Counted from the stretch's first letter, positions 851-52,115 are shown. The stretch is 64,000 bases of DNA from Bacteroidales bacterium (GCA_038204725.1 JBBRCQ010000006.1:3638-67637); one strand, 5' to 3'. Notes: generated by a model from the sequence alone, not told the origin. Numbers and translations: made by a program.

Positions 851-1615
851 ATGGTAAAAATTTCTGCTGTCATCATCACTTTTAATGAAGAACATAATAT
901 TGAATGTTGCATTCGTTCGTTACAGGGTATAGCCGATGAAATCATCGTAATAGATTCATTTTCGACGGATGAAACGCCTAAAATTTGTAATTCGTTAGGA
1001 GCAAGATTCTTTCAGATAAAATGGGAAGGATATGCTGCAACCAAGAATTATGGGAACAGTATGGCATCACACAATTATATATTGTCAGTAGATGCTGATG
1101 AGGTTTTGTCAGATGCTCTTCAAAAAGAAATCATTGGTTTTAAAAATCAGGATAATCACCTGGATGCATACAGTGTAAACAGACTCACCAATTATTGCGG
1201 GAGCTGGATCCATCATTGTGGTTGGTATCCCGATACCAAACTGAGGTTGTGGAATAAAATGAAAGGGAAATGGGAAGGGAATATTCATGAAGAAGTTGTA
1301 ATGGATAAAGATTCAACTTTCACCAATTTGAAAAGTGATTTGCTTCATTATTCCTATTATTCAATTCAGCAACATGTAAACCAGGCCAATAAATTTACCG
1401 ATTTAACGGCCATAGAAGCATACAACAATGGTAAAAAAGCAGGAATTGTAAAAATAATTTTCAGCCCATGGATAAAATTTTTCAGGGACTATTTTCTGAA
1501 ACTTGGTTTTTTAGATGGTTATCATGGTTTTGTAATCTGTAAAATTTCTGCATTTGCAACCTTTATGAAATACATTAAAATAAAAGAATTACAGGGAAGA
1601 GGAAAGATAAAGTGA
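851..1615 (+). CDS. family 2 glycosyltransferase (LPS/cell-envelope type)
   Basis: ISAVIITFNEEHNIECCIRSL...IIVIDSFSTDETPKI...SVDADEVLS is the typical GT2 N-terminal fold with a DxD-like DAD motif. Start moved from TTG 830 to ATG 851. Confidence 0.85.
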   Translation: MVKISAVIITFNEEHNIECCIRSLQGIADEIIVIDSFSTDETPKICNSLGARFFQIKWEGYAATKNYGNSMASHNYILSVDADEVLSDALQKEIIGFKNQDNHLDAYSVNRLTNYCGSWIHHCGWYPDTKLRLWNKMKGKWEGNIHEEVVMDKDSTFTNLKSDLLHYSYYSIQQHVNQANKFTDLTAIEAYNNGKKAGIVKIIFSPWIKFFRDYFLKLGFLDGYHGFVICKISAFATFMKYIKIKELQGRGKIK

Positions 1616-1646
1616 ATAGTGAATAGTGAACAGTGAACAGTGAACA
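1612..1646 (+). repeat. heptamer tandem array (GTGAATA)2(GTGAACA)3 containing the GT2 stop codon
   Basis: Five tandem 7-nt units read directly. TGA 1613-1615 lies in the first unit. Followed 12 nt later by GGGCGTAGCCCT (1660-1671). Confidence 0.9.
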
Positions 1647-2209
1647 GATTACATCCATGGGGCGTAGCCCTGACATCTTAATATGGTAGGAATTCCCGAC
1701 CGGAGCTATGCACCCAACTTGTTAAATAAACATGTTCATTAATAACCAATGCCAATCAAGGTTTGAAAACTGTCATTTTTTACAATGTTAGATTCCTCAC
1801 TTCGTTCGGAATCCTTTTATTCTATAGAAGGTCTCATTGTTAATGTGTTTGACAAATTGCATCACTTACTTATTTAATTTTCAACTCTTGATTCGCATAA
1901 CCAATTTTCTGTTATTGGTTCTGATAACATTTAACCTTCGTATGGCTTTGGATTTATTAGTTTTATTAAATATCTTGATGTTTTAAAATTAGTTTATATT
2001 TGTAAATTATTAAATAGCTCAACGGATAAGCTATAAAGGATAATACCGGTTATGGTTTAAACGTTAATATTTGTAAGGCTTTGGTAAATTCTATACATAT
2101 TGAGAGGATAGATGTGTTTGACGAAAAAAAATGACATTTATTGATTGTGATCCTAAAAAAACATCACGATAGAATGAATGTTTATCGATAAAAAGTATTA
2201 ATAAGGAAG

Positions 2210-2776
2210 ATGAAAATACGAGATAGTGGAATGCCAGAAGATACAATATGGTCTAAGTTTTTTGACCCTGATTCCATTTTGCAACAAATGGGTTTTTCGG
2301 CGGATATAAATTTAGTTGTAGATTTAGGTTGTGGTTTCGGTACTTTCTCTATTCCCGCATCACAAATGATTAAAGGAAAAGTTCATGCTTTCGATATTGA
2401 CCCCTATATGATTGGTCAATTACAAAGCAAGATTGACCAACAAAATATAAAAAATATCGAACTGCATTTAACAGATTTTATTACCGAAGGTTCTGGACTT
2501 CCTAATAATTCAGTTGATTATATTATGCTTTTTAATATATTGCATCACGATAATCCTCACCAAATTTTAAACGAGGTGCATAGAATTTTAAAAACAAATG
2601 CAAAAGCAGGTATTATTCATTGGCGTAGCGATATTCAAACTCCACGAGGACCAAATTTGGACTTTCGTCCCCAACCCAAACAGTGCAAGCAGTGGGCGAT
2701 TGAATCAGGTTTTCAAGTAGAATCAGAAATAATATTAAAACCCTATCATTTTGGAATGATAATCACTAAAATTTAA
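2210..2776 (+). CDS. class I SAM-dependent methyltransferase
   Basis: Motif I VVDLGCGFGTFS, then FDIDP and DYIMLFNILHH, as in Methyltransf_11/25-type proteins. Confidence 0.8.
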   Translation: MKIRDSGMPEDTIWSKFFDPDSILQQMGFSADINLVVDLGCGFGTFSIPASQMIKGKVHAFDIDPYMIGQLQSKIDQQNIKNIELHLTDFITEGSGLPNNSVDYIMLFNILHHDNPHQILNEVHRILKTNAKAGIIHWRSDIQTPRGPNLDFRPQPKQCKQWAIESGFQVESEIILKPYHFGMIITKI

Positions 2777-2780
2777 ATGA

Positions 2781-3101
2781 ATGAAAATCGGAATTATTCT
2801 TGAAACAAAAGAATTTGAAAAAGCTTGGAATGCTTTTCGATTCGCAGTAACTGCTAAAAAACAAGGACACGAGGTAAAGCTTTTTCTTATGGGTGAAGCC
2901 GTAGAATGTGAAGGATTGACCCATGAAAAATACAATGTAGATGAACAATTAAAAGCATTTGTGAATGTTGGCGGTGAAATACTTGCTTGTGGAACTTGTT
3001 TAAAATCAAGACAATTGAGCGAAACGGATGCTTGTCCAATCTCTACAATGATCGATTGCGTAAACTTGGTCGTATGGGCTGATAAAACAGTAACCTTTTA
3101 A
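2781..3101 (+). CDS. DsrE/DsrF-like sulfur-relay family protein
   Basis: 106 aa. MKIGIIL...KQGHEVKLFLMGEAVE...ILACGTCLKSR is the typical small DsrE-fold pattern with the conserved Cys region. 4 nt after the methyltransferase stop. Confidence 0.65.
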   Translation: MKIGIILETKEFEKAWNAFRFAVTAKKQGHEVKLFLMGEAVECEGLTHEKYNVDEQLKAFVNVGGEILACGTCLKSRQLSETDACPISTMIDCVNLVVWADKTVTF

Positions 3102-3103
3102 TA

Positions 3104-3230
3104 TACAGTAGCTCAGTAACAGTACTTCATAAGAAATTGTAGCTCTGGACTGAGCAAAAAGCTCAATAACTCAATAACCAATAACCATTAACCAATAACA
3201 ATAACCATTAACCATTAACCATTAACCAAC
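3104..3230 (+). repeat. composite intergenic repeat: hairpin module plus AATAACC/ATTAACC word array
   Basis: 3134-3170 is the reverse complement of the module GAGCTTTTGCTCAGTCC(C/A)GAGCTA(C/T)AATTT, also present at about 51752-51788 and 51906-51942. 3163-3230 is a run of CAATAAC/CCATTAA words ending 20 nt before ATG 3250. Confidence 0.85.
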
Positions 3231-3249
3231 TACCCTCAATTAACATTTA

Positions 3250-4266
3250 ATGAATACGCATCGAATCATCATCAGCAGAACAGATAGCATCGGAGATGTG
3301 ATACTTACCTTGCCTTTGGCTGGGATCATAAAAAAATACCTGCCAGAAACCTACATTCTTTTTTTAGGGAGTGCTTATACCAAAGATGTTATTGATACCT
3401 GTGTGCATGTCGATGAATTTGTGGATTGGACTGCACTCAGCAAACTTCCCGAAAACGAAGCAAATGCTGCTTTTCGATCATTGAATGCAACTACCATTCT
3501 TCATGTTTTTCCGCGCAAAGCTATTGCTGTGCTGGCAAAAAAAGCTAAAATTCAAAATAGAATAGGCACCACCAACAGAGTTTATCATTGGCTCAATTGC
3601 AATGAACTCATAAAATTATCACGCAAAAACTCCGATTTACACGAATCGCAATTAAACACAAAACTTTTACAACCTTTAGGAATTAATATTGATTTCAGCC
3701 TACAAGAAATTGAATCCTTTTATGGCTTTGAAAAGACGAAGCTTTTACCCGAAAAATACCGGGTTTTGCTGGATGATAAAAAATTCAATCTTATTTTGCA
3801 TCCTAAATCAAAAGGCAGTGCCAGAGAGTGGGGGCTGGATAATTTCGCCGGATTAATTGACATTCTCCCTGAAAGCCACTACAAGATTTTTATTTCTGGA
3901 ACAACAGCAGAAGCCGCATTGATGCAAGCTGAAATTCTTGATAAGTATGCTACAATAACTGATATAACCGGCAAATTAACACTAGCTGAGTTTATAGCAT
4001 TTATAGGACAAGCCGATGGATTGTTGGCCGCCAGTACTGGACCTTTGCATATTGCCGCAGCACTGGGCAAAGTTGCATTGGGGATTTATCCACCGATTAA
4101 ACCGATGCATCCGGGGCGTTGGAAAGCTGTCGGGAAACAGTCGCATTGTTTTGTTAAAGAAAAAGCGTGTAATGATTGCCGGAAAACCATGGATTGTCAT
4201 TGTATGAAAAGCATTACACCAGAAGAAATTATGGAATATTTAGAGAAAAATTGCAGTAAAATTTAA
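3250..4266 (+). CDS. family 9 glycosyltransferase (LPS heptosyltransferase-like)
   Basis: N-terminal IIISRTDSIGDVILTLPL and C-terminal GPLHIAAALG motifs typical of RfaF/RfaC-type GT9 enzymes. Confidence 0.8.
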   Translation: MNTHRIIISRTDSIGDVILTLPLAGIIKKYLPETYILFLGSAYTKDVIDTCVHVDEFVDWTALSKLPENEANAAFRSLNATTILHVFPRKAIAVLAKKAKIQNRIGTTNRVYHWLNCNELIKLSRKNSDLHESQLNTKLLQPLGINIDFSLQEIESFYGFEKTKLLPEKYRVLLDDKKFNLILHPKSKGSAREWGLDNFAGLIDILPESHYKIFISGTTAEAALMQAEILDKYATITDITGKLTLAEFIAFIGQADGLLAASTGPLHIAAALGKVALGIYPPIKPMHPGRWKAVGKQSHCFVKEKACNDCRKTMDCHCMKSITPEEIMEYLEKNCSKI

Positions 4267-9502: not shown

Positions 9503-9945
9503 TTTTTTTTAAATAATGTTGATTAAAGATTTTAGTACTGTCGGTTGATGGTTGCATTATTAACCATAAAGGAAACTAAGTTGTTACAATACAATAAAAT
9601 TCTACAATGCACACCATATTTGAATGACTATAAAATTCAATATTTAAACAACAAATATAAACAAAAAACATCTAACAAGGTAAAAATTTTTTCATGGATA
9701 GAAAACGAGCATCCCTAAAACGGTGCTGTTTATTCCAGCATTAAAGTATTAAACCGAAATCCCATTGCATGTGAGGCCGGATGGGGTTTTTTGTGTTGAA
9801 ATTTCAGTGATAAATTTACCACCGGTGCTCTGTCCACTGAACCTTTAGTAGCTCGGCTACTGAGCCTGTCGAAGTGTTGAAGCCAGGTCACTGAATAAAT
9901 CATAAGTGGTTTGTTCTATGAGGTTATCTTCTGAGTATTCGTAGG

Positions 9946-10986
9946 TTATTGTTTAGTTGTTATTTTTTTAATTTCTTTGTCAAAATCGCTTTCAATCAAC
10001 TTGTCTTTTGCAATCCTAAATTTCTCAAATTCATTTTCTGCCAGTGATAATGCAATTTCATGAGATACTTTGCCCTGATGTTTTAAAACAGCTTCTTCAT
10101 TAAACTGCAAGAATGCATCTAATTTTGCAACCCAATCTTTCATATACATAATCACCCCTTTATTTGCCTGGTTTTCTGCATAATCAAGATACATAGTTAC
10201 AATTCTATTTAGTCCGTTCAGTTCTTTTTCGTTCAAATAGTTTTTTGCAATGCCAACATCTGTTTTTCTAATTGCACCTTTAGGAGCATTTTTCCAGGTA
10301 CTTAATCCCATATTTTCTTTTGTGCTATCCACTCTTGACGAAATAAGTTCTGCAGCGGTTTGTCCGGTAATTGCCCAATGCAGTTTGTTTTGAACAGTAG
10401 CATAAAAAGTTTTTGTGGTTTCAGTATCTTTGCTGTAATCGGCACTGCAAGCCGAGTAGATATCTGTAATTTTTTGATAGAATCTTCTTTCGCTGCTGCG
10501 TATATCACGAATACGGGCAAGTTGTTCTTCAAAATAATCTTTGCCAAAGATGTTGTTCGGATTTTTCAACCGTTCATCATCCATCGTAAAACCTTTGATG
10601 ATGTATTCTTTTAAGCGTTCGGTAGCCCATATTCTGAAAGCCGTTGCCTGATGACTATTTACACGATAACCTACGGAAATGATGGCATCAAGATTGTAAA
10701 ATTTTGTAGTCGTTTCTTGTGTTTTCCCTTTTATAGCGCCATGTTGAGTGGTATGTGCAAAATTTGCACATACCAGTTGTTCCTGTAATTCGCCCGACTT
10801 AAAGATATTTCCAATGTGTTTGGTAACTACCGTTCTATCCACCCCAAACAAATCTGCAATTTTTTGTTGGGTAAGCCAAATAGTTTCGTTCTGCAAATAA
10901 ATTTCAACTTTCACCTTGCCATTAGCTGTTGTGTAAAGGAGTATTTCGTTGAAACCTTCTGAGGATTTGTTTGATTTTTTTGCCAT
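9946..10986 (-). CDS. RhuM-family (virulence protein RhuM-like) protein
   Basis: VEIYLQNETIWLTQQKIADLFGVDRTVVTKHI...FYNLDAIISVGYRVNSHQATAFRIWATERLKEYIIKGF is the characteristic RhuM N-terminal region. Confidence 0.8.
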   Translation of the reverse strand: MAKKSNKSSEGFNEILLYTTANGKVKVEIYLQNETIWLTQQKIADLFGVDRTVVTKHIGNIFKSGELQEQLVCANFAHTTQHGAIKGKTQETTTKFYNLDAIISVGYRVNSHQATAFRIWATERLKEYIIKGFTMDDERLKNPNNIFGKDYFEEQLARIRDIRSSERRFYQKITDIYSACSADYSKDTETTKTFYATVQNKLHWAITGQTAAELISSRVDSTKENMGLSTWKNAPKGAIRKTDVGIAKNYLNEKELNGLNRIVTMYLDYAENQANKGVIMYMKDWVAKLDAFLQFNEEAVLKHQGKVSHEIALSLAENEFEKFRIAKDKLIESDFDKEIKKITTKQ

Positions 10987-11096
10987 GGTTTAAACTTCAA
11001 TTTTGTTATGACGACTTAAGTTTTTTCCTTCGCTATATGTCTCTTTGTTGTGTGCAATGGTACATTCCCAGCTCAATTTGAGCTGTTAGGTGGGAA

Positions 11097-11260
11097 GTTT
11101 GAAACTACTTTCCTTTAGCTTGCTAAATTAGTTTATTTTTAGTTTTTTAAGCACTTTGTTCAATAAAACTACACTTATCAACAAACTGATATTGGCGATA
11201 AGGTAATAGGTAATGTTTTTGACCTGTCTTAACCTTTGCAACTGTGAAGCACCTATTTCC
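11097..11260 (-). repeat. copy 1 of a ~164-bp direct repeat (5' leader region of RhuM genes)
   Basis: Aligns by eye at roughly 90 percent identity with 13068-13230 (GTTTGAAACT...TTGTTCAATAAAAC...TTATCAACAAACTGATATT.GCGATAAG...TAGGTAATGTTTTTGACCTGTCTT.ACCTTT.CAACTGTGAAGCACCTATTTCC). Confidence 0.85.
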
Positions 11261-11315
11261 CGTTCAATATGATCATAATTTCCCTGAAACTTTCCAAATC
11301 GGCTTCATTTGAGGT

Positions 11316-11390
11316 GGCTTCGACAAGCTCAGCCACCGCTGCTCCGGTCACTGAGCCTGTCGAAGTCCGGTCACTGAGCCTGTCGAAGTG
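11316..11390 (+). repeat. hairpin-forming GC-rich repeat flanking GIY-YIG gene (left copy)
   Basis: GGCTTCGACAAGCTCAGCCACCGCTGCTCCGG, then two units of TCACTGAGCCTGTCGAAGT. CTTCGACAAGCTCAG pairs with CTGAGC(C/T)TGTCGAAG. Confidence 0.9.
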
Positions 11391-11400
11391 TCCTATTTTA

Positions 11401-11703: not shown

Positions 11704-11729
11704 AGATATTTTCCTTTTTTATTATTTGT

Positions 11730-11847
11730 GGCTTCGACAAGCTCAGCCACCGCTGCTCCGGACACTGAGCTTGTCGTATCACCGGACACTGAGCTTGTCG
11801 TATCTCCGGACACTGAGCTTGTCGAAGTGTCGAAGTGTCGAAGTGCC
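11730..11847 (+). repeat. hairpin-forming GC-rich repeat flanking GIY-YIG gene (right copy)
   Basis: The first 33 nt are identical to 11316-11348. Then three units of GGACACTGAGCTTGTCG(TAT/AAG) and (GTCGAAGT)3. Confidence 0.9.
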
Positions 11848-12588
11848 TTAATCTCCTGCATAATATAATTCTTTTAGTATAGCTCCATAATTGTCTTCTT
11901 GTTCATTTAACCTTAACCAGCCAATGAGCCCGAAGTCAGTTTTTACAAGGAAATATTTATCGATATCAAAATCTTCAAGCGTTGCATCGGCCAAAAGAAT
12001 TTCAATTTCATAATCCTTTGGAAGTTGAGCTATTATTTCATTTCCAACTTTTTCTTTGTACAATGTAATTTCTTTTAGCGTTTTGCCTTTTAATCCTACA
12101 TAGTTAAAGGGCTGTACAATTTCCAGAATTGTGTCGCTTTTTATTTGGAATTTTCTTCGGCGGTCATACATATTATTTACATGTCCGGAGGTATAAATGA
12201 TCCCAAAACCGTTTATATAAAATTCCAAACAGGAAAATCGGCCAATAATATCCCCTGTTTTATTTGTAACAACATATCCGGGGTCAGCACTCAAACCCTC
12301 AGAATAAATAATTGTCAAGCTATCTTTTAAATACTGATTTTTGAATTTTGCAACAATTGTCCATTCAGTAGGAAATGAATCTTTTTCGCAAAAAAGAGTA
12401 TCATCTTTTTCTAATGTATAACAAGGTTTATTGATAAAACGAGTAAACTTTTTATCATACGCAAAATAAACATTGTAATTTGTGTCAATTGAAACCTTCG
12501 TTAAATTGGGAAAATACGCTTTTGTCTGGCAAAAAGACGTCAGACTTATTATTATTAAAAATATAAAAATGAATTGTTTTGTTGTCAT
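11848..12588 (-). CDS. hypothetical secreted protein
   Basis: ORF with N-terminal signal-like segment FIFIFLIIISLTSFCQ. No recognised domain. Confidence 0.55.
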   Translation of the reverse strand: MTTKQFIFIFLIIISLTSFCQTKAYFPNLTKVSIDTNYNVYFAYDKKFTRFINKPCYTLEKDDTLFCEKDSFPTEWTIVAKFKNQYLKDSLTIIYSEGLSADPGYVVTNKTGDIIGRFSCLEFYINGFGIIYTSGHVNNMYDRRRKFQIKSDTILEIVQPFNYVGLKGKTLKEITLYKEKVGNEIIAQLPKDYEIEILLADATLEDFDIDKYFLVKTDFGLIGWLRLNEQEDNYGAILKELYYAGD

Positions 12589-12612: not shown

Positions 12613-13038
12613 TTAAAGAAGAGAAGCCGATCCATGTTGAGTGGTTGTTCGGAATTTCCGAACAACCACTTTTTCGTACAATTCGCCTTTTTTATTATCT
12701 CTTAAAACATTGGTAGCCCATATTCTGAATTGCTTTCCTTGCTTTGATTTTACGCGATAACCAGCCGAAATGATAACATCCAAATTGTAGTATTCTATCA
12801 AACGTTCTACATTTCTTCCTCCTTCGTATTGAACTGTCGCAAAATTTGCAACAGTTGATTCTTTTTCAAGTTCTCCCTCAGTAAATACATTGCCAATATG
12901 TTTTCCAATTGTTTTCACATCTCTACCAAACAAAACAGCCAACTGTTGACGATTGAGCCAAACGCTATCTTCTTAAATTCTAACCTCAATACGTTCAGGC
13001 AGTTCGTTCGAATGATAGAGAACTATTTCGTTTTTCAT
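12613..13038 (-). pseudogene. RhuM-family pseudogene (in-frame TAA plus C-terminal truncation)
   Basis: ATG at 13038-13036 gives MKNEIVLYHSNELPERIEVRI, then TAA (12975-12973), then EDSVWLNRQQLAVLFGRDVKTIGKHI...YYNLDVIISAGYRVKSKQGKQFRIWATNVLRD in the same frame. The stop aligns with Q of YLQNETIW in the intact copy. Homology stops about 230 aa short of the intact gene. Confidence 0.75.
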
Positions 13039-13067
13039 TTTTTTCACATCTTGCTTTCAGGTGGTCT

Positions 13068-13230
13068 GTTTGAAACTCCTTTTCTTTAGCTTTCTAAATT
13101 AGTTGTTTTTTGTTTTTTACGCACTTTGTTCAATAAAACCATACTTATCAACAAACTGATATTAGCGATAAGTTTATAGGTAATGTTTTTGACCTGTCTT
13201 GACCTTTACAACTGTGAAGCACCTATTTCC
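13068..13230 (-). repeat. copy 2 of the ~164-bp RhuM leader repeat
   Basis: See 11097-11260. Confidence 0.85.
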
Positions 13231-15533: not shown

Positions 15534-16094
15534 TTATTGGAGCAATGTATGTTCGATTAAAATTTTTATTCCGATAATAATCAGCACCAGGCCACCTAAT
15601 AATTCTGCTGTACGGGGTTTGATAAATCGGTTGATATTCCCTAAACAAATTCCACCAAAAGAGATTGCAAAAGTAGTAATTCCGATAATAATGGATGCTT
15701 TGAGTATTGAAACTTCGAGAAATCCGAAACTGATACCTACCACAAATGCATCGATGGATGTTGCGATGGCCAGCATCATCAGCACATAGTTATTGTTGAT
15801 GTTAAACTGGCGTTCTTCAGGGTTTACTTTAATGGCTTCCACTATCATCTTTAAGCCAATGATAAACAGCAGCGAAAAGGCAATCCAATGATCGATCTGT
15901 TCAATCATATCTTTGAACGTATTGCCCAATAGCCATCCTAAAAACGGCATAATCCCCTGAAAAATGGCTAAAACAACGGCAATTTTCAGTCCTTTTCTAT
16001 AGTTGATACATTTTAAAGATCCACTGGTAAGTGAAACAGCAAAGCTATCCATGGATAAGCCTATTGCAATTAATAATAATTCTAAGAAACTCAA
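15534..16094 (-). CDS. mntP: manganese efflux pump MntP
   Basis: LLIAIGLSMDSFAVSL N-terminus and second half SIDAFVVGISFG. About 186 aa with 6 TM. Apparent TTG start. Confidence 0.85.
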   Translation of the reverse strand: MSFLELLLIAIGLSMDSFAVSLTSGSLKCINYRKGLKIAVVLAIFQGIMPFLGWLLGNTFKDMIEQIDHWIAFSLLFIIGLKMIVEAIKVNPEERQFNINNNYVLMMLAIATSIDAFVVGISFGFLEVSILKASIIIGITTFAISFGGICLGNINRFIKPRTAELLGGLVLIIIGIKILIEHTLLQ

Positions 16095-16166
16095 GGTTTA
16101 AATTTTTGGTTTGCAAAATTAATGAAATAAAAGACGTGAAATACTTTTATTTGTGATTTAGAGTAT

Positions 16167-16480
16167 GGTTAATTGTTAAAGGTTATTAAGTTATTGGTGA
16201 TTGGTTATTAAGTATCGATAGCTGAACAAAGTTGAAGTATTCTGACTTTAGTTACAACCAACCCGTCGGGTGCAAAGCTCCCGACGGATTATTGCTAGCT
16301 CCCGACGGATTATTAACGACCATTTAATGTTTACGATTTCTTTTATCTATGATGCTCTCAGGGCTATACCCCTTTGATGGTTATGATTTCTTTTATCTAC
16401 GAAGATTTTAGGGCTACGCCCATCTGATAACTTTCACTCTTCACTGTTCACTGTTCACTGTTAACTGATCACTGTTCACT
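16167..16480 (-). repeat. all-repeat intergenic spacer between GAF gene and mntP
   Basis: Contains, in + strand notation: heptamers TTCACT(C/G) x7 at 16433-16480; a duplicated ~45-nt unit (G.TTA.GATTTCTTTTATCTA.GA...T...AGGGCTA.(A/G)CCC) at 16330-16421; CTCCCGACGGATTATT x2 at 16279-16314, with an inverted CCGTCGGG at 16263; and TTAAT/TTATT words at 16167-16212. Confidence 0.9.
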
Positions 16481-16929
16481 AAATACACCAATCCAACAAT
16501 TTTCTCCAACCAAACAGCATCTACCGCATCAAAAGTACCCAGTTCTTTGCTGTCGATATCCAGCACACCGGTTACTTTTCCTGCTTTGTCGTGGATAGGA
16601 ACTACAATTTCGGATTTTGAACGGGAATCGCAGGCAATATGTCCCGGGAATTTTTCTACATCTGCAACCACAATGGTTTGATTGCTGTTGATGCCTGCCC
16701 AGCAAACGCCTGTATCTTTTTTTAATTCCATACAGGCCACAGAACCCTGATATGTTCTTACAATGAGCTGACCGTTTCGTAAACAATAGAATCCGGTCCA
16801 GAAAAACTGACTCATTTTATGATGAAGCAATGCCACAATGCTGCACATCCGTGCATCGGTATCTTCGCTTTTAAGCAATAATTGCTGTAATTGCCCAAAG
16901 ATTCGCTCGTATCTTTTTGATTTTTCCAT
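16441..16929 (-). CDS. GAF domain protein (free methionine-R-sulfoxide reductase / YebR-like)
   Basis: FFWTGFY......LIV..YQG..AC..L....GVCW.......IVV.DV..FPGHIACDS.SKSEIVVPI pattern of single-GAF fRMsr proteins. The last ~12 codons (VNSDQLTVNSEQ) are encoded by the heptamer array. Confidence 0.8.
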   Translation of the reverse strand: MEKSKRYERIFGQLQQLLLKSEDTDARMCSIVALLHHKMSQFFWTGFYCLRNGQLIVRTYQGSVACMELKKDTGVCWAGINSNQTIVVADVEKFPGHIACDSRSKSEIVVPIHDKAGKVTGVLDIDSKELGTFDAVDAVWLEKIVGLVYLVNSDQLTVNSEQ

Positions 16930-20186: not shown

Positions 20187-20259
20187 CTCTCCGTAGCTCA
20201 GCTGGTAGAGCAATTGACTCTTAATCAATGGGTCGTGGGTTCGATTCCCGCCGGGGAGA
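20187..20259 (+). tRNA. tRNA-Lys (anticodon CTT)
   Basis: Folded by hand: acceptor CTCTCCG/CGGGGAG, D-arm GCTC AGCTGGTA GAGC, anticodon stem ATTGA/TCAAT with loop CTCTTAA, T-arm GTGGG TTCGATT CCCGC. Ends are +/-2 nt. Confidence 0.85.
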
Positions 20260-20343
20260 CATCATGTATGAAAAATAACTCAACTTGCAGAACAAAGCCG
20301 ATGGTTGCACTTTCGGCTTTCATCCTGTAATTGAGGGATGTTT

Positions 20344-20417
20344 CGGGATGTAGCGCAGTCTGGTAGCGTACCACGTTCGGGACGTGGGGGTCGGAAGTTC
20401 GAATCTTCTCATCCCGA
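20344..20417 (+). tRNA. tRNA-Pro (anticodon CGG)
   Basis: Acceptor CGGGATG/CATCCCG, anticodon stem CCACG/CGTGG with loop TTCGGGA, T-arm GGAAG TTCGAAT CTTCT. Confidence 0.9.
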
Positions 20418-20462
20418 CAATAAAACCGTAAGAACCAATTATTGTTGGTTTTGATTTAAATC

Positions 20463-20535
<73 letters not shown>

Positions 20536-20713
20536 CACAAAATACCTCTCCAATCCTCATTTTTTTTAATTCTAAAATCGTTAATCGTTACAGCTTTCTT
20601 TCGATCTCCCTTAAAGAAGATAAGTAAAAAAGCAAAAACTTGTAATGGCATATCATTTTCAAATCGCAAAAAAACTCCCCAAATCCCCAAATCAAACATT
20701 TCCAAAAACAAAA

Positions 20714-29488: not shown

Positions 29489-29550
29489 CCTTTTTTAATC
29501 AGATTTTAATATCGATTTAATATTATATTAATATACAACATATTACTTTG
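29489..29550 (+). promoter_or_regulatory. phased-repeat promoter, site 1 (4 x 11-bp TTAAT repeats plus -7-like TTACTTTG)
   Basis: CCTTTTTTAAT CAGATTTTAAT ATCGATTTAAT ATTATATTAAT. The TTAAT copies end at 29499, 29510, 29521 and 29532. TTTG ends at 29550, 18 nt after the last repeat. Confidence 0.6.
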
Positions 29551-29910
29551 TAAAATAAATTTTTATATGCATTTATTTTTTGCTATTTTAAGAATTGGCA
29601 GAACTTAACAGTTAAATTAACATCGGGTTGAAATTGTATTTTGTAAAACATCTTTTTTGATATTTAAATTGATTTTTCTTTGAATGGTCAGTTTATTCCG
29701 TCCTATTATCTAAAATTGCCCACTCGTTTATCTGCTTTCTAAATTAATAGATACTTGAGTTTTTGCCATCGCATTTATGCAATTCTGCATTTAATTCAAT
29801 TCGTAAATATGATTTTTTTAGCGACTATATGCTTATGTACAAATGGAAATTTGTATTTTTAAAAGTGAGTTCAATAATTTAAAAACAGTAATAAATAATA
29901 AGGTCACATC

Positions 29911-33247: not shown

Positions 33248-33310
33248 CCCCTTTTTAATCAGATTTTAATTTCGCTTTAATTGGATATTAATTTGCATAG
33301 ACTTATTTTG
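33248..33310 (+). promoter_or_regulatory. phased-repeat promoter, site 2
   Basis: CCCTTTTTAAT CAGATTTTAAT TTCGCTTTAAT TGGATATTAAT. The TTAAT copies end at 33259, 33270, 33281 and 33292. TTATTTTG ends at 33310 (again 18 nt), 14 nt before ATG 33324. Confidence 0.6.
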
Positions 33311-33323
33311 CAAATAAAAAAGT

Positions 33324-37432: not shown

Positions 37433-37494
37433 ATTATTTTAACCTGATTTTAATGTATGTTTAATTCCAATTTAATAGTAAATCATCAATTTTG
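37433..37494 (+). promoter_or_regulatory. phased-repeat promoter, site 3
   Basis: ATTATTTTAAC CTGATTTTAAT GTATGTTTAAT TCCAATTTAAT. The repeats end at 37443, 37454, 37465 and 37476. CAATTTTG ends at 37494 (18 nt). Confidence 0.55.
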
Positions 37495-37536
37495 TTGAAA
37501 AATTACAGAATTTTTTCAACTATTTACTTTTATTGT

Positions 37537-37593: not shown

Positions 37594-37701
37594 ATGGCAG
37601 ATAATAAAACAGAATCAATGGACAAAACGACTAAAATTGCTTTAGTTGTTATCGTATTAGTATTTATAGCACTTATCGTAGTTTATAAAATGACCATGTA
37701 G
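37594..37701 (+). CDS. possible 35-aa single-TM peptide
   Basis: Hand translation: MADNKTESMDKTTKIALVVIVLVFIALIVVYKMTM. Below the track's size cutoff. Confidence 0.3.
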   Translation: MADNKTESMDKTTKIALVVIVLVFIALIVVYKMTM

Positions 37702-37702
37702 T

Positions 37703-37795
37703 ACTTCGACAAGCTCAGTAACCATTCGACAAGCTCAGTAAGCGTCTTTAGTATCGTTCAACGAACCTCTTCGGACTTCTGACTTCGGTATTTCG
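37703..37795 (+). repeat. intergenic word repeats (TTCGACAAGCTCAGTA x2, CTTCGGACTTCTGACTTCGG)
   Basis: The 16-mer TTCGACAAGCTCAGTA occurs at 37705-37720 and 37725-37740. Same vocabulary as 11316-11847 and 51187-51270. Confidence 0.8.
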
Positions 37796-37818
37796 GCTCA
37801 ATCACTGAATCACAAATG

Positions 37819-38702: not shown

Positions 38703-38784
38703 TTAATGGTTAATGGTTGTTGATATTTGGTGATTTTAAAAAAAGTAACTGATTACTGTTCACTGTTCACTCTTCACTCTTCAC
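38703..38784 (-). repeat. short polar spacer: heptamer array on the transglycosylase stop plus TTAATGG words before the next start
   Basis: + strand TGATTAC TGTTCAC TGTTCAC TCTTCAC TCTTCAC (38750-38784) contains the stop at 38774-38776. TTAATGG TTAATGG TTGTTG (38703-38722) ends 5 nt from start codon 38697. Confidence 0.85.
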
Positions 38785-40789
38785 TATTAAAGTTGTATTC
38801 CGGTTCATCAGGTGTTGAATCTGTGATAATGATGAACTCTTTTGCTGGTCCTTTTAATTCAATTTCAGGTAGTAATTTGTCGGCATCTTCTTGTGTAATC
38901 ATTTCTTTTTTCAACATCCTGCCGGCTGCAAATTTATAATAATTGGCTAGAAATGGTTTGAGTTTACCACTTTTGTCAAACGAATACCTGAACCATTTTG
39001 GATGAGGGATCATACTTGATAAAAACAACGACTCTGCCAGTGTGAGTTTAGATGCATCCTTATTAAAATAGAAATGGGATGCTTCGTTAACACCATAAAT
39101 CATCGGACCCCATTCAATAATGTTGAGATACACTTCAAACATACGTTCCTTTGAAGTCAATCCATTATTTTCAATCAACCATACTATCAATGCTTCTTCC
39201 AGTTTTCGGGCAACCGTTTTGTTGCGTTTGAGAAAAACATTTTTCACCAGTTGCATGCTAATGGTACTTCCTCCTCGTGCAAAGCGTTTGGATTTTATAT
39301 TTTTTGATATGGACGCTTTAAATGATTCGATCAAAAAACCACGATGCCAGAAAAAAGCGGCGTCTTCCGAAATCAGTACAGCATTTTTCAGATAAGGAGA
39401 AATCTCATCTATACGTTTAAAATTAGGATTTTCAGGACCAATTATAAAACTCTTTACCGGTTCTCCTTTTTCAAAAGCAGTATAAAGAAAATCGTCATTC
39501 ATTTTACTTAAATTCGTGTTGCCTTGTTTTGTAATTCTAAAATTATAGCGTTTTAAATCCGATTTAAAGATGATAGAATCCGGATGGTCAATATCCACAA
39601 AAAAATCTAAATCGTAGGCAAGTTCACCTGTGGTTTGTATGCCTTCCAGATTTAAAAACAAACCTTTTGGAATGGATTCAAACAATTCCTGAGCAGGAAA
39701 TCGTTCTTTATGCAAACGCAGGGCAAACTGGCGGGTAGGATTGGGACGATAATATAAGTAAGGATGAAAAGTCAGTTGATTGAAAACGACAATAGATGCA
39801 CTATCTAATTCAAAATAATCACTGCCGGCATTTAATTGATAGGAAATGGAAGCGTTGTTTAAAAATACGTCAGAAGTGGAAATGCGGGCGTTATTAATCA
39901 ATAATCCTTTTACAGATGAAAAACCCTTGATTGTTGTTTTTCCACTCGTCATTTTATTACCGTTAAAACTAAATTGAATCGTATCAAAACTTACACTTGA
40001 TTTCCATCTATATTCAATAAAAGGCAGTTGCACCCTCGAAGTATCAGAAGCATAAAGTTTAAGCTGGACGATCTTTTTGGATGGTTCTATGATGCCTTCC
40101 ATCATCCAGTGCATGGTTTTGTCCTGTTCTGTCAATGAAATGACTGATTTAAACTGATGTTCAATTACAATTAGTTCGGGGAGTGTCATCGTGATCGAAT
40201 GTCCATTGGTATTAGAATGGATAATAAAGTTTTGAATCCTGATATTCGATGGTATTTTATAAAAAACTGCGTTGAGCAAAAGATTGATTTCTGATGCGTA
40301 ATCTTTGGACGTTACTTGTGTTTTTTCCTGAGAATTGCCTTCAAGCTGACGATTCAACAAAAAATTATAATTATTGATGCTGTCTTTTTTAACAAGTGAA
40401 ATACTAGCGTTTTTTAATTCAAAATCAGTTAAGTTAATATTGAAAATCAGCAAATCCCAAAAATTGACTTTTGCATACACCGACTCAACAGTTAGTAAAG
40501 TATCCCCATTGACAGGTTTGAGTGAGATGTTCTTAATCTCAGCGCCACTTAATCCTTTAAAATTAAAATCACCAATATGTAATTCAGCATGATAGGTTTT
40601 GTTAAAATCATCAATATTGCGATGAAGTATTTCATTTACAATGGATCCTCGTAAAAGAAACAATAAGATGACTAATCCTGTTAAAATAGCGGTTGCAATG
40701 ATCAATATTTTTTTCCATTTTAATCTTTGAATAAAATGGAATAGCCAATCAATCAATAGTTTAATAATTTTCAACAATTTTTCAATCAT
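38774..40789 (-). CDS. membrane-anchored protein with C-terminal peptidoglycan glycosyltransferase (GT51 transglycosylase) domain
   Basis: LISEDAAFFWHRGF...RGGSTISMQLVKNVFL...RK..E...V..IE motifs in the last ~200 aa. N-terminal TM plus a ~430-aa uncharacterised region. Confidence 0.8.
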   Translation of the reverse strand: MIEKLLKIIKLLIDWLFHFIQRLKWKKILIIATAILTGLVILLFLLRGSIVNEILHRNIDDFNKTYHAELHIGDFNFKGLSGAEIKNISLKPVNGDTLLTVESVYAKVNFWDLLIFNINLTDFELKNASISLVKKDSINNYNFLLNRQLEGNSQEKTQVTSKDYASEINLLLNAVFYKIPSNIRIQNFIIHSNTNGHSITMTLPELIVIEHQFKSVISLTEQDKTMHWMMEGIIEPSKKIVQLKLYASDTSRVQLPFIEYRWKSSVSFDTIQFSFNGNKMTSGKTTIKGFSSVKGLLINNARISTSDVFLNNASISYQLNAGSDYFELDSASIVVFNQLTFHPYLYYRPNPTRQFALRLHKERFPAQELFESIPKGLFLNLEGIQTTGELAYDLDFFVDIDHPDSIIFKSDLKRYNFRITKQGNTNLSKMNDDFLYTAFEKGEPVKSFIIGPENPNFKRIDEISPYLKNAVLISEDAAFFWHRGFLIESFKASISKNIKSKRFARGGSTISMQLVKNVFLKRNKTVARKLEEALIVWLIENNGLTSKERMFEVYLNIIEWGPMIYGVNEASHFYFNKDASKLTLAESLFLSSMIPHPKWFRYSFDKSGKLKPFLANYYKFAAGRMLKKEMITQEDADKLLPEIELKGPAKEFIIITDSTPDEPEYNFNSEE

Positions 40790-50491: not shown

Positions 50492-50692
50492 AAAATGAAC
50501 CAAATAGTTTTTATTTAATATTTTAAAACTGACTATCAGCTTTATAATTGTAAAAATTTAGGAATGTAAATATACAGTCAATATTCTTAATCAGCAAAAA
50601 GAGTAATTAACAATCTTATTCATATATGATGTATGTCATTGATATTCTATGCATTTAGTGTGTTAATAAATATTCAAGTACCACATACTTTT

Positions 50693-51124
50693 TTAAATAA
50701 GATGCTCCCATATTAATTTTTTCCCAAAACCGAGTCGGTTATCTGTCATTTTTATAAAGTCAGGCGTAATGCCCCAGAGTGTGGTTTTTGCTAATAATGC
50801 AATGGGAAACTTTTTAATATAAGCTATTTTAGCAGATGAAAGTTCTTTTCCTTCCAGTTTTTTTATTTTTCCCGTAAATTGTATCCCTCTGATTTTACCA
50901 ATAATGCTTGTTTCGAGCGCGATGGCTCCTGCTACACAAGGTTGATTTAATGTATCAACAATGTGTTTTGTTGTGATGTCAGATGTAAATACAAACATAT
51001 TTTCCTCTGCCATATATACATAAAAACAAGTGCAGGTATACGGTTGATTGTTGCTGGATGTAGCCAATGTGAATATATGATGTTCTTTGATAAAATCAAG
51101 GATGGTGTTTTCTATTGTTGTCAT
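50693..51124 (-). CDS. pyridoxamine 5'-phosphate oxidase-like FMN-binding family protein (YhbP/UPF0306-like)
   Basis: IFTLATSSNNQPYTCTCFYVY......VFTSD..TKH......V.G.I......IGKIRGIQF.G pattern. Confidence 0.65.
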   Translation of the reverse strand: MTTIENTILDFIKEHHIFTLATSSNNQPYTCTCFYVYMAEENMFVFTSDITTKHIVDTLNQPCVAGAIALETSIIGKIRGIQFTGKIKKLEGKELSSAKIAYIKKFPIALLAKTTLWGITPDFIKMTDNRLGFGKKLIWEHLI

Positions 51125-51132
51125 GGAAGTTT

Positions 51133-51311
51133 GTTAATGGGTTTTAGGGTGTTAAGTTATTAAGTTATTGTTTTTTAAGTTGTTAAGTCGGAAGTCCGAA
51201 GTCGGAAGTCCGAAGTCGGAAGTCCGAAGTCGGAAGACAGGAGACCGAAGATAAACACTGATCGAAGTCGAAGTGTTCCTCACTCTCTCTCACTGCCTCT
51301 CTCTCTCTCCC
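51133..51311 (-). repeat. all-repeat spacer: TTAAG/TTATT words, (GTCGGAA GTCCGAA)n and a CT-rich tract
   Basis: 51187-51235 holds seven alternating heptamers GTCGGAA/GTCCGAA, degenerating to 51256. TCGAAGTCGAAGTG at 51262-51275. CTCACTCTCTCTCACTGCCTCTCTCTCTCTCCC at 51279-51311. Confidence 0.9.
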
Positions 51312-51319
51312 ACGCCCAA

Positions 51320-51694
51320 TTATTTTTTAATCAGCATATTTATCGCAATGATTATCAATGCAACTGCAAAAACTTTTTTCATATTTTCAGGAGATATACT
51401 CAATGCAATTTTTGAACCGAAATACCCACCAATTAAAAAAGCAACAGCAATTATAGCCGCATATTTTAAATTCATTTGCCCGGCTTTGTAATAATTCATC
51501 ACAGCCAATAATCCAACGGGAGGTAACATAATCGCCAGGCTGGTACCTTGTGCCGAATGTTGACTCATCCCTAAAAAATAAATCAAAGCTGGTATCATAA
51601 TAACACCACCCCCTAATCCTACCATTCCACCAAAAATTCCGGATGCCAGGCCAATTGCCAGTAATATTAAAACAGTTCCAATGTTCATTTCCAT
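51320..51694 (-). CDS. TauE/SafE family (sulfite exporter-like) membrane protein, half-size
   Basis: GIFGGMVGLGGGVIMIPALIYFLGM..H.AQGTSL pattern. 124 aa, 4 TM. Confidence 0.7.
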   Translation of the reverse strand: MEMNIGTVLILLAIGLASGIFGGMVGLGGGVIMIPALIYFLGMSQHSAQGTSLAIMLPPVGLLAVMNYYKAGQMNLKYAAIIAVAFLIGGYFGSKIALSISPENMKKVFAVALIIIAINMLIKK

Positions 51695-52105
51695 TTTGTT
51701 TAGTTATTGGTTATTAAGTTATTAAGTTATTGGGTTATTGAGTTGTTAGGTTTGCTGAGCTTTTACTCAGTCCCGAGCTACAATTTCCGCTAAGCGATAG
51801 TTTAGTACCGATCTACAATTTCTTACGAAGTATGAGTTAGAAATTGTTATTCGGGAAAGTATGAGTTAGAAATTGTTATTCGGGATTAGTTGTTAAGTAA
51901 TTGGTTTGATGAGCTTTTGCTCAGTCCCGAGCTATAATTTCTATCTCGTTCTTCGACATCGCTCAGCTCAGTTTATTTTTCTTTTTCTTATTTTCTTTTT
52001 ACTTTTGGTCACCATTCACTATTCACTATTCACTGTTCACTATTCACTGTTCACTGTTCACTCTTCACTGTTCACTGTTCACTCTTCACTATCTACACTC
52101 TTCAC
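51695..52105 (-). repeat. ~410-bp intergenic region built entirely of repeat modules
   Basis: Word array at 51703-51748. Hairpin module at about 51752-51788 and again at about 51906-51942. 29-nt-period tandem duplication of AAGTATGAGTTAGAAATTGTTATTCGGG at 51828-51855 and 51857-51884. TTCTTCGACATCGCTCAGCTCAG around 51950. 11 clean plus 2 degenerate heptamers TTCACT(A/G/C) at 52015-52105. Confidence 0.9.
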
Positions 52106-52115
52106 TTAGTAAAGC

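Follow-up and report, generated by a model that had tools for sequence, protein, structure and literature searches.

Polar heptanucleotide repeat arrays at gene ends and gene starts in a 64-kb segment of Bacteroidales DNA

Introduction

Positions 16095-16480 of a 64,000-nt stretch of Bacteroidales DNA (GCA_038204725.1, JBBRCQ010000006.1:3638-67637; the whole stretch is called the window below) comprise the 346-nt spacer that joins the minus-strand gene of a GAF-domain protein to mntP. A tandem array of the heptamer GTGAACA lies on the stop codon of the first gene, an array of AATAACC-type words lies ahead of the second, and arrays of the same two families recur in other spacers of the window. 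The question raised by this locus is why simple 7-nt repeats should be placed at both boundaries of a spacer and should always show the same strand in the sense direction. The original prediction, made from the sequence alone, had described a strictly polar intergenic design and had suggested either a strand-specific function at the RNA level or the polar insertion of a composite element resembling a miniature inverted-repeat transposable element (MITE). The answer proposed here, to which a probability of roughly 45% is assigned, is that the arrays are heptamer repeats generated by slippage, the polarity of which depends on the kind of repeat that translation can tolerate at either boundary of a gene.

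Results

Arrays at gene 3' ends: The window stems from a metagenome assembly and was all of the DNA of the source genome that was examined. Its G+C content is 33.7%; Por_Secre_tail domains are found in neighbouring genes, and the nearest proteins come from metagenome-assembled genomes (MAGs) named Bacteroidales or Bacteroidota. Arrays were detected with Tandem Repeats Finder (TRF) and with an independent scan for period 7, and both procedures recovered every array listed earlier. Four GTGAAYA arrays were located, at 1611-1647 (+), 16433-16480 (-), 38750-38785 (-) and 52009-52106 (-), with a TRF period of 7, 4.4-13.7 copies and 86-96% matches. Three tandem GTGAANA units (≤1 mismatch) were matched 17 times in the window, as compared with 0.00 times in 100 shuffles. 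All arrays of the window are intergenic or overlap final codons only, and a relaxed scan of both window strands revealed no array beyond those listed and none in the opposite orientation.

The array at 1611-1647 (+, 5.3 units of GTGAATA/GTGAACA, TRF) supplies with its first unit the TGA stop (1613-1615) of a GT2 glycosyltransferase gene (830-1615, Pfam GT2), the C terminus of which aligns with those of relatives to within one residue. The array at 16433-16480 (-, 6.9 units of GTGAACA with the variants GTGATCA, GTTAACA and GTGAAGA) encodes the last residues and the TGA (16441-16443) of the GAF gene, homologues of which are annotated as free L-methionine-(R)-S-oxide reductase (free-Met-R-sulfoxide-reductase-like). 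A C-terminal tail of 12-14 residues (VNSDQLTVNSEQ / YLVNSDQLTVNSEQ) is translated from this array, and the protein is 162 aa long in the window as against 148-152 aa in homologues; a look-up of the exact protein gave no record. The third array (38750-38785, -), composed of AGTGAAG ×2, AGTGAAC ×2 and AGTAATC, holds the TGA stop (38774-38776) of a transglycosylase gene resembling those of penicillin-binding proteins (PBP). The fourth (52009-52106, -, 13.7 units of GTGAACA/GTGAATA/GTGAAGA with a super-period of 21 nt) begins 9-10 nt after the TAG (52116-52118) of a gene encoding 1114 aa, labelled an outer-membrane protein (OMP) in the original prediction; folded as RNA, this array was no better than its shuffles (z = +0.58).

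The working stop codon of three genes is therefore an array TGA. Among 52 stops in the window, TAA is used 35 times and TGA eight times, and three of the eight TGA codons are array-derived. A frame check gave TGA in all three frames of (GTGAACA)n and no stop in the complement, and the spurious open reading frame (ORF) 51906-52109 indeed reads through the stop-free complement. With uniform placement in each spacer, the adjacency of the four arrays to stops has a joint P of ~6e-4. The account of the gene ends given in the original prediction (four sense-oriented arrays, three enclosed stops, a stop shortly before the fourth array, the array-encoded GAF tail) was thus borne out by TRF, the period-7 scan, the shuffles and the reading of the sequence itself. 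A purine-rich tract of (GA)n / GTGAG... type at 51260-51310 (-), after the stop of the TauE-family gene, is by its sequence a candidate for a decayed GTGA-type array.

Arrays before starts: Five AATAAC-type arrays were located, at 3164-3229 (+), 16167-16213 (-), 38703-38722 (-), 51133-51188 (-) and 51702-51752 (-); three spaced TAAC words gave 12 window matches, as compared with 0.16 in shuffles. The first (CAATAAC/CATTAAC, period 7, 9.4 units, TRF) ends 20 nt before ATG 3250 of a GT9 heptosyltransferase gene, a start backed by homologues of 338 aa. The array at 16167-16213 (AATAACC/AATAACTT type, TRF) lies 72 nt upstream of the TTG start of mntP (16094) and upstream of its promoter box. That at 38703-38722 (CCATTAA ×2.3 + CAACAA) ends 5 nt before ATG 38697 of an RluA-family pseudouridine synthase gene, the start of which is backed by homologues of 291-292 aa at 100% coverage. 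Two arrays, in which 7- and 8-nt units are mixed, each end 8 nt before a start: that at 51133-51188 (AATAACTT-type 8-mer words) before ATG 51124 of a PNPOx-like gene and that at 51702-51752 (AATAACC/AATAACTT, ~6.5 units) before ATG 51694 of a half-size TauE-family gene, a start backed by homologues of 120-125 aa that align from residue 1. The proximity of the five arrays to starts gave a Fisher-combined p of ~0.011 under uniform placement. The five arrays, their gaps (20, 5, 8, 8 and 72 nt) and their sense orientation agree with what had been predicted, and the GT9, RluA and TauE starts now have the backing of homologues.

In the sense direction, the AAUAAC-type arrays contain no G and no AUG, GUG or UUG, with UAA in all frames; the AAUAACC leaders of GT9 and TauE, when folded alone, gave a minimum free energy of 0 kcal/mol, and the AAUAACC arrays gave the same value when folded together with the start region. 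Ordinary start regions of the window contain 45% A and 10% G. The composition of the AAUAACC arrays fits an exaggeration of these ordinary start regions and, by analogy, initiation without Shine-Dalgarno sites in Bacteroidia, whose initiation regions are rich in A, depleted of AUG and free of structure (Baez et al. 2019, PMC6847099). The arrays, being high in A, low in G, unstructured and without upstream AUG, may be regarded as functional analogues of such regions; unlike the arrays, native Bacteroidia initiation regions are not repetitive, and the GT9 and PNPOx leaders (2 of the 4 that abut a start) lack A at -3 and -6. The predicted A-rich leader without Shine-Dalgarno site holds as to predicted lack of structure, absence of G and composition; it probably does not hold for the mntP spacer, in which the array lies upstream of the promoter box.

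Polarity within the window: When both families are taken together, 9/9 arrays are in sense orientation (two-sided p = 0.004). The arrays near 38.7 kb are located in a 3-kb minus-strand island amid plus-strand blocks, and because they flip with this island, polarity follows local gene direction and not replication; replication direction was rejected as its cause on this ground. The ordinary A>T skew of sense strands was found insufficient as well: it amounts to +0.04 in non-array spacers as against +0.29 in the arrays, and A exceeds T on the sense strand in only 15/26 spacers.

Orthologous spacers in relatives: The GAF-mntP pair is syntenic in the related locus L122, with ~79% nucleotide identity in the genes and a spacer of 128 nt as against 346 nt in the window. 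Only the promoter-proximal 60 nt of the two spacers align, blastn homology resumes at 16154, and the GAF stop of L122 is accompanied merely by TGAATGAATGATGAATGAG, a two-unit TGA-bearing heptamer. In L253 the mntP spacer carries (AATTCAAT)5.4, an 8-mer array, at the place of the AATAACC units of the window; in L125 the GAF gene is followed by thymidine kinase instead of mntP, and the spacer after its stop is free of arrays. The end of the PBP gene reads AAT AGT GAA CAG TAA in L253, a native proto-repeat of one and a half units, and ATC AAT GAA AAT TAA in L254; in L248, where RluA is 87% identical, it reads AGTGAAA and then AGTGA(AG), followed by 13 units of ATAAAGG/TTAAAGG. The C termini of the PBP orthologues are ...NSEQ*, ...NSEK* or ...INEN*.

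In relatives at 80-87% protein identity, arrays are missing or are made of other units at the same genes. Judged from these alignments, the arrays are lineage-specific and appear to grow from the end sequence of the gene itself, with changes in unit and copy number and with boundary placement kept together with sense-strand stops. Both presence/absence and unit and copy-number variation, for which the original prediction had looked to related strains, were thus seen; as the corresponding spacers of relatives at ~80% protein identity are free of arrays, the flanking genes can do without them. Locus L248 also carries (GTTTTAA)3 at 1289-1312, with TAA on both strands, between two convergent stops; this sequence fits boundary-touching arrays that carry stops on whichever strand is read.

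The GT2 and GT9 genes overlap by ATGA in the relatives L255 (4237-6017), L256 and L257 (163-1943). In the window, 1,634 nt (1616-3249) separate the two; the GTGAAYA array opens this gap, the AATAACC array closes it, and it contains genes for a SAM-methyltransferase-like (MTase, 2210-2776) and a DsrE-like protein (2781-3101); a second GT2 gene, which follows GT9 in the relatives, is absent from the window. TGAATA is found at both junctions of the gap, a match that extends only 3 nt past the obligatory TGA (~p = 0.05 in AT-rich DNA). As the window GT2 is only 56-57% identical to the GT2 of the relatives, the true breakpoints are uncertain. A tblastn search with the OMP, TauE, PNPOx, MTase and DsrE proteins gave no match in any of the fetched loci, and window modules (GTAGCTCKGGACTGAG, TTCGACAAGCTCAG, GGGCGTAGCCC and others) were essentially not found in the 250 other loci fetched.

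Survey of other genomes: Two further samples, both chosen by the repeat itself, were collected: (GTGAAYA)3 from GTDB representative genomes of many phyla, in which at least 120 stretches carry it, and (AWTAACC)3 from at least 120 metagenome stretches. All counts from this survey, here and below, are counts among the matches listed. Gene models were crude longest-ORF calls with unreliable start positions; because such calling pushes starts toward stop-free arrays, distances between arrays and starts are unreliable, and the conclusions rest on stop positions, with near-start antisense cases checked by eye.

Between co-directional genes, GTGAAYA arrays were in sense in 32 cases and antisense in 23, which is not significant; the predicted invariable sense orientation is therefore a property of the window and does not extend to other genomes. 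The candidate rule that the stop-rich strand is the sense strand across bacteria was rejected on the same kind of count (46 sense, 39 antisense, between co-directional genes). Position relative to stops gave a different result. Sense-side stops lay ≤13 nt from the GTGAAYA array in 33/53 cases (13.7 expected, P = 1e-12) and antisense-side stops in only 1/44 (6.5 expected, P = 0.002); all arrays inside ORFs were antisense (18/18), and half of the 30 Bacteroidota arrays touched a sense-side stop. The complement, TRTTCAC, preceded convincing ATG starts by 4-30 nt in Acidobacteriota, Cyanobacteria and Gammaproteobacteria, and arrays hugged the ORF on one fixed repeat side, whatever its direction, in 65/85 cases.

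AWTAACC arrays were mostly in sense (38 versus 19, p = 0.016), and 20/54 lay ≤20 nt from a sense start (13.7 expected). They were also next to antisense-side stops in 15/29 cases (9.0 expected), mostly with the ATTAACC type, the complement of which carries TAA; such stops were abutted by 13/24 ATTAACC and 5/18 AATAACC arrays, a difference that is not significant alone. Both in the window and in 1.6 Mb of array-bearing loci from many phyla, period 7 was at least 30-fold above any other period (225 and 180 arrays at period 7, ≤11 at any other). A Bacteroidetes MAG contig (L045, 3583-3953) was found to carry 31 + 20 perfect GTGAAYA units, the first of them 10 nt past the end of a gene, and its arrays are far longer than those of the window.

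Comparison with known repeats: The window arrays are heptanucleotide tandem repeats of the class described as long simple sequence repeats (LSSRs) or short tandemly repeated repetitive (STRR) sequences and not a new kind of element. Heptanucleotides are the most abundant LSSR class in prokaryotes according to Mrazek (2007) as relayed in PMC4679880. The window arrays share with the LSSRs, as far as that relayed account describes them, head-to-tail 7-nt units, an overwhelmingly intergenic location, preference for period 7 over 5-6 and 8-11, a sporadic phylogenetic distribution and copy numbers changing in 7-nt steps; tandem 7-nt units, a length beyond chance, mainly non-coding positions and the favoured period of 7 were all found in the window. 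Unlike the arrangement seen here, the LSSR account, in the form relayed, is purely statistical and has no two complementary unit families, for stops and starts, within one spacer. No description of a GTGAAYA/AATAACC pair, or of stop-side and start-side arrays of two families, was found in the literature.

The closest precedent for the start side is TAACTGA, a repeat of Beggiatoaceae, Cyanobacteria and five Bacteroidetes that points forward and lies immediately ahead of start codons; it is missing in close relatives, and binding of S1, Csp or CsrA has been proposed (MacGregor 2015, PMC4679880). For the Bacteroidetes, Flexibacter litoralis is the example given (12/14 sets). The likeness extends to arrays a few nucleotides upstream of starts that lack ribosome-binding sites, to unit stops closing all frames, to close relatives without arrays at the same spacers, and to the mixing of longer TAACTGA arrays with other heptamers. 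Four of the five AATAAC arrays have the placement of this family (sense, gaps of 5, 8, 8 and 20 nt); the unit sequences (AATAACC, ATTAACC, AATAACTT, GTGAAYA) differ from it, and the TAACTGA description has no partner array on the stop side. The sole TAACTGA near the arrays is on the + strand inside the array 16433-16480, where it arises as a variant on the antisense strand.

For the stop side, the GGGAATC/GGGGA(C/T)T heptamers of Xanthomonas and Nostoc are found within 0-50 bp of the stop, or overlapping it, on the coding strand; upstream of ORFs they are on the complementary strand near the start, so that one fixed side is closer to the ORF (Rehm et al. 2015, PMC4692102; heptanucleotides of Calothrix are also mentioned in passages of this article). 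The same positional grammar is reproduced by the cross-genome GTGAAYA counts. The units themselves differ: those of Rehm et al. are G-rich, capable of forming G-quadruplexes and stop-free on both strands, whereas those of the window are A-rich, unstructured and stop-bearing, in an AT-rich host. The cyanobacterial STRR units CCCCAGT, TTGGTCA and CAACAGT were reportedly defined by hybridisation in heterocystous cyanobacteria, by Mazel et al. in 1990. Tandem intergenic heptamers with several unit families per genome are common to both cases, and some window units are one base from an STRR unit in some rotation (AACAGTG vs AACAGTC, TTGGTTA vs TTGGTCA); every window unit is at least 1 nt off in every rotation, and the host is Bacteroidales-like. 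We know of no reported rule that ties STRR polarity to stop or start codons.

With repetitive extragenic palindromic sequences and their mosaic elements (REP/BIME), REPINs and MITEs, the arrays share shortness, multiple copies and confinement to intergenic spacers, and the hairpin modules of the window (GCTCAGT...ACTGAGC, CTTCGGA/CTTCCGA, CTTCGACAAGCTCAG...) resemble REP-like stem-loops. Unlike these elements, the arrays consist of units in direct tandem order and have neither inverted termini nor a fixed element length, and no transposase, of REP-associated (RAYT) or other type, is associated with arrays in the window.

Architecture of the array-bearing spacers: In the GAF-mntP spacer, a promoter box of the Bacteroidetes -7 type for mntP (TAATTTTG, 16116-16123, -) separates the AATAAC array from the TTG start, which follows the box after 19 nt; the box is conserved in L122 and L253. 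As the AATAAC array lies upstream of this conserved box, it probably falls outside the mRNA leader. The middle of the spacer (16254-16419, -), as seen from direct repeats and alignment, is made up of a CCGTCGGG...CCCGACGG hairpin with repeated AATAATCCGTCGGGAGC, followed by two copies of a 50-nt unit, each of which carries a GGGC(G/T)TAGCCC module; the whole region is absent from L122. A manganese riboswitch (yybP-ykoY) was considered for this long spacer and dropped, since an Rfam search of the whole window at gathering score returned three tRNAs only and nothing in any spacer.

A module of ~27 nt, GGGCGTAGCCCTGACATCTT..., with a small GGGC/GCCC hairpin (1660-1686, +) begins 12 nt after the array 1611-1647. 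Its GGGCGTAGCCC (1660-1670, +) recurs at 16411-16421 (-), so that, as predicted, a shared module (GGGCGTAGCCCT...) is found 12 nt past two GTGAAYA arrays (1611-1647 and 16433-16480) at equal spacing. A hairpin module, GAAATTGTAGCTCTGGACTGAGCAAAAAGCTCA (3129-3163, +; inverted-repeat matches, alignment), directly precedes the first AATAACC array; as RNA (GCUCAGU...ACUGAGC) it folds at -16.6 kcal/mol (z = -2.7). The region 51749-51941 (-) has two copies of the hairpin module GAAATTGTAGCTCGGGACTGAG(C/T)AAAAGCTCA (51756-51785 and 51910-51939) flanking a perfect 29-nt direct repeat in two copies (51828-51885). Hairpin module and AATAAC array occur together three times, in the same relative order.

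Mid-spacer, a CTTCGGA/CTTCCGA (sense) array with a 14-nt period (51185-51250, -, TRF) is stop-free on both strands and folds as RNA at -25.5 kcal/mol (z = -3.96). A related short CTTCGGA/CTTCTGA array (37769-37809, +; TRF, inverted repeat) is located in the convergent spacer after a small ORF (37595-37702). Together the two represent a third repeat family, AAGTCGG/AAGTCCG, in which alternate units are reverse complements and would form a long hairpin in sense RNA.

Read in the sense direction, the five start-side spacers have the order stop, GTGAAYA array (in 3/5), hairpin module(s), AAUAAC array, start. The spacer after the TauE stop has the GA/GTGAG tract in place of the GTGAAYA array, and the DsrE-to-GT9 spacer has no stop-side array; in a sixth array-bearing spacer, GT2-to-MTase, the stop-side array and the GGGCGTAGCCC module stand alone. 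No Bacteroidetes-type TAnnTTTG box was found in the four spacers whose array abuts the start. A terminator scan by simple consensus (G+C-rich stem plus T run, not tuned to Bacteroidia) gave 0, 0 and 1 matches in 1550-3300, 16050-16500 and 50600-52200, which cover five of the six array-bearing spacers (PBP-to-RluA excluded); the sole match lies inside the TauE coding sequence, so that no terminator-like site outside coding sequence was found in these regions. Co-transcription across array-bearing spacers is plausible because four spacers are without a promoter box and the scanned ones without a terminator-like site.

Other features of the window: For the TauE/SafE-family gene (51320-51694), the Pfam match is confined to the C-terminal half of the model. 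Truncation by the repeat-rich spacer was considered and rejected, since half-size homologues (120-125 aa, 50-60% identity) form a normal class. REP-like inverted or direct repeats of CTTCGACAAGCTCAG / CTGAGCCTGTCGAAG are found at 9819-9882, 11314-11391, 11728-11845 and 37706-37742, just downstream of several gene ends. Paralogous segments at 10607-11260 and 12698-13230 (71-92% identity) span two neighbouring minus-strand gene ends with their downstream spacers; their similarity indicates a local tandem duplication. An AT-rich element of 71 nt, TTTTAATCAGATTTTAAT...TTTG..AAA, is present three times (29489-29559, 33249-33319 and 37433-37503) upstream of plus-strand genes and may be a shared promoter or operator region. 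The ORF 37595-37702 (~35 aa, with a hydrophobic stretch, convergent with RluA) may be a real small membrane protein, since a 52-aa gene is called at the corresponding site in L248 (1314-1472). The tRNA cluster at 20187-20536, Lys(CTT)-Pro(CGG)-Thr(CGT), had been overlaid in the crude gene map by a spurious ORF of 77 aa (20320-20553, -).

Discussion

In the explanation to which we give a probability of roughly 45%, replication slippage would create and remodel heptamer arrays in non-coding DNA right at the gene boundaries of this uncultured Bacteroidales lineage (34% G+C), and their fixed polarity would mainly reflect a translation filter and not a purpose-built device. At a 3' boundary, a repeat could reach or run past the native stop only where a stop codon is present on the sense strand of the repeat, and the protein would then be unchanged or longer by a few residues only. 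GTGAAYA (with TGA, or TAG in GTGAATAG) would pass this filter and its complement would fail; because the unit period is 7, the stop recurs in all three frames. At a 5' boundary without Shine-Dalgarno pairing, the RNA tolerated would be A-rich, G-poor, unstructured and free of competing starts, so that AAUAACC would pass and GGUUAUU would fail. The arrays would act as passive insulators, with a pad of stops in three frames behind one gene, a leader free of structure ahead of the following one and stable hairpin modules between. Slippage as the generator, selection as the cause of polarity and co-transcription of the gene pairs are what we infer here. The period-7 excess, which matches the published heptanucleotide excess, was counted in favour, as were in-place growth and unit turnover at the PBP and GAF orthologues, the use of an array TGA by three genes though TAA is usual, and the generality of fusion to sense-side stops. 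Also counted in favour were the larger share of ATTAACC than of AATAACC arrays at antisense-side stops, the likeness of the AAUAACC leaders to native start regions, and the spacers free of promoter boxes or terminator-like sites, which are compatible with co-transcription.

Several points weigh against this explanation. The GTGAAYA unit is common to four unrelated gene ends, and the composite of array and module follows two gene ends at identical spacing, which independent origin in place fails to explain. The GGGAATC repeats of Rehm et al. (PMC4692102) hug stops with the same coding-strand bias; because they are stop-free on both strands, three-frame stops are not the whole reason for this bias. 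In the window itself, a stop-free 8-mer array (TGTCGAAG ×3.2, 11820-11845) lies 2 nt from the stop of gene 11848-12588. Other genomes show no overall strand bias, and the start positions in their crude gene models are unreliable. A pure filter, moreover, predicts survivors at boundaries, not that about two thirds of the sense arrays start exactly at the stop, and the slippage-filter view leaves the exact preference for 7 nt without explanation.

Active sites at the RNA level are an unlikely alternative to slippage with a translation filter. The arrays would then be multivalent single-stranded platforms by which polycistronic mRNAs recruit an RNA-binding protein, for example bS1, a CsrA-like factor or a protein with a cold-shock domain, with AAUAACC tuning downstream initiation and GUGAACA acting in termination, release or 3'-end stability; binding of this kind is what MacGregor proposed for the TAACTGA repeats (PMC4679880). 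The strict sense polarity in the window, distances of 5-20 nt from starts or positions on stops, and the predicted lack of RNA structure are consistent with such platforms, as are the four spacers without a promoter box between array and start, the scanned spacers without a terminator-like site, and the excess of AWTAACC arrays in sense and near starts. Arrays also persist at orthologous sites while their unit sequence drifts, proposals and partial reporter data have been published for near-start heptamer repeats (PMC4679880; bioRxiv 10.1101/2022.06.06.494920), and bS1 is thought to contact the A-rich region at -12 to -15 in Bacteroidia (PMC6847099). A sequence-specific binder is nevertheless hard to reconcile with relatives at 80-87% protein identity that are without arrays or have different units. 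One AATAAC array lies upstream of a promoter box, the flanking genes have no common functional theme, the GTGAAYA unit is found in both polarities in other phyla, and no candidate binding protein was identified in this analysis.

Equally doubtful is a copy-paste process at the DNA level, in which the arrays would be the ends or docking sites of mobile modules, or recombination between arrays would move GTGAAYA-AATAACC segments, with polarity following from the insertion mechanism. Its main support is the 1,634-nt two-gene segment between GT2 and GT9, bounded by a GTGAAYA and an AATAACC array with TGAATA at both junctions; this match extends only 3 nt past the obligatory TGA, however, and the breakpoints are uncertain for the reason given above. 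The identical unit at four unrelated gene ends, the GGGCGTAGCCCT... module 12 nt after two arrays and the threefold occurrence of hairpin module and AATAAC array in the same order suggest that some array-plus-module units may have been copied between loci. Long heptamer arrays have moreover been associated with local gene rearrangement in Gramella (MacGregor, PMC4679880). Against this stand the PBP array, which looks as if seeded from the last codons of its own gene, orthologous arrays made of different units, the lack of any transposase or integrase gene beside arrays in the window, and the near absence of the lineage-specific modules from the other 250 loci fetched. The array-bearing spacers (76-594 nt) also have no terminal inverted repeats bounding them and differ in their interiors, which, together with the different units at orthologous sites, speaks against the composite MITE that had been put forward as the alternative in the original prediction. 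Small dispersed repeats embedded in heptamer arrays of Nostoc, reportedly described by Elhai et al. in 2008, would likewise agree with copying.

A bolder proposal, which we regard as quite improbable, is that the two families are matched polar boundary adaptors: (GTGAAYA)n as a three-frame stop and (AATAACC)n as a leader free of Shine-Dalgarno sites would let recombination or an unknown enzyme splice foreign cassettes into operons in the correct orientation and with both neighbours left intact, the MTase-DsrE insertion being an example. In its broader version, all bacterial heptamer arrays would be laid down by an unknown mechanism anchored at ORF ends; such a mechanism would explain the one-sided rule both here and in Rehm et al.

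Very improbable are sites acting in the DNA itself, for which the link to translation would be incidental; they would be either phased sites (three units are 21 bp, or two helical turns) that a nucleoid protein or another DNA-binding protein occupies, or A/T-rich promoter flanks resembling UP elements. The super-period of 21 nt in two arrays, the mntP-spacer array just upstream of a conserved promoter box and the heptad repeats to which regulators bind in other systems (such as TTTTGAT in the ctxAB promoter) would agree with such sites. So would the fixed repeat side that hugs the ORF, as in Rehm et al.; this one-sided rule is partly due to stop-rich strands ending ORFs, however. Window polarity flips with gene direction in the 3-kb island, the arrays touch coding ends and not promoter positions, the gap between array and start is too short for a promoter at four start-side arrays, and no candidate binding protein is known. 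An artefact of assembly or low complexity, which had been named as what would undo the pattern, or chance in AT-rich DNA, is extremely improbable: the DNA does come from a metagenome assembly, and assemblers may collapse or expand repeats, but the arrays are ≤98 nt long with diagnostic variant units, a Logan contig (run SRR19962012, which may share the same reads) agrees at 100% identity along 10,986 nt in which two of the arrays lie, arrays are present at the same gene end in relatives that were assembled independently, and shuffles gave 0 to 0.16 matches as compared with 17 and 12.

Conclusions

Among the long simple-sequence repeats of bacteria, those with heptamer units are the commonest, and the window offers a clean case in a lineage without Shine-Dalgarno sites, in which two unit families share out the work within common spacers. 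The rule of Rehm et al. was reproduced with a different, A-rich unit, and antisense arrays avoid stops; part of this one-sided rule follows from which strand carries the stop codons. For annotation, the arrays call for caution, as they make false ORFs on the complement, shift stops to TGA and add array-encoded tails to proteins. Should one of the alternatives acting through RNA or recombination be true, the arrays would offer a practicable way into a new system of post-transcriptional control or recombination in Bacteroidia. In the orthologous spacers, the repeats appear to grow from the last codons of a gene and to swap their units while sense-strand placement at the boundary is kept; if the arrays are passive insulators, they would be a natural example of how the constraints of translation shape junk DNA at gene boundaries.

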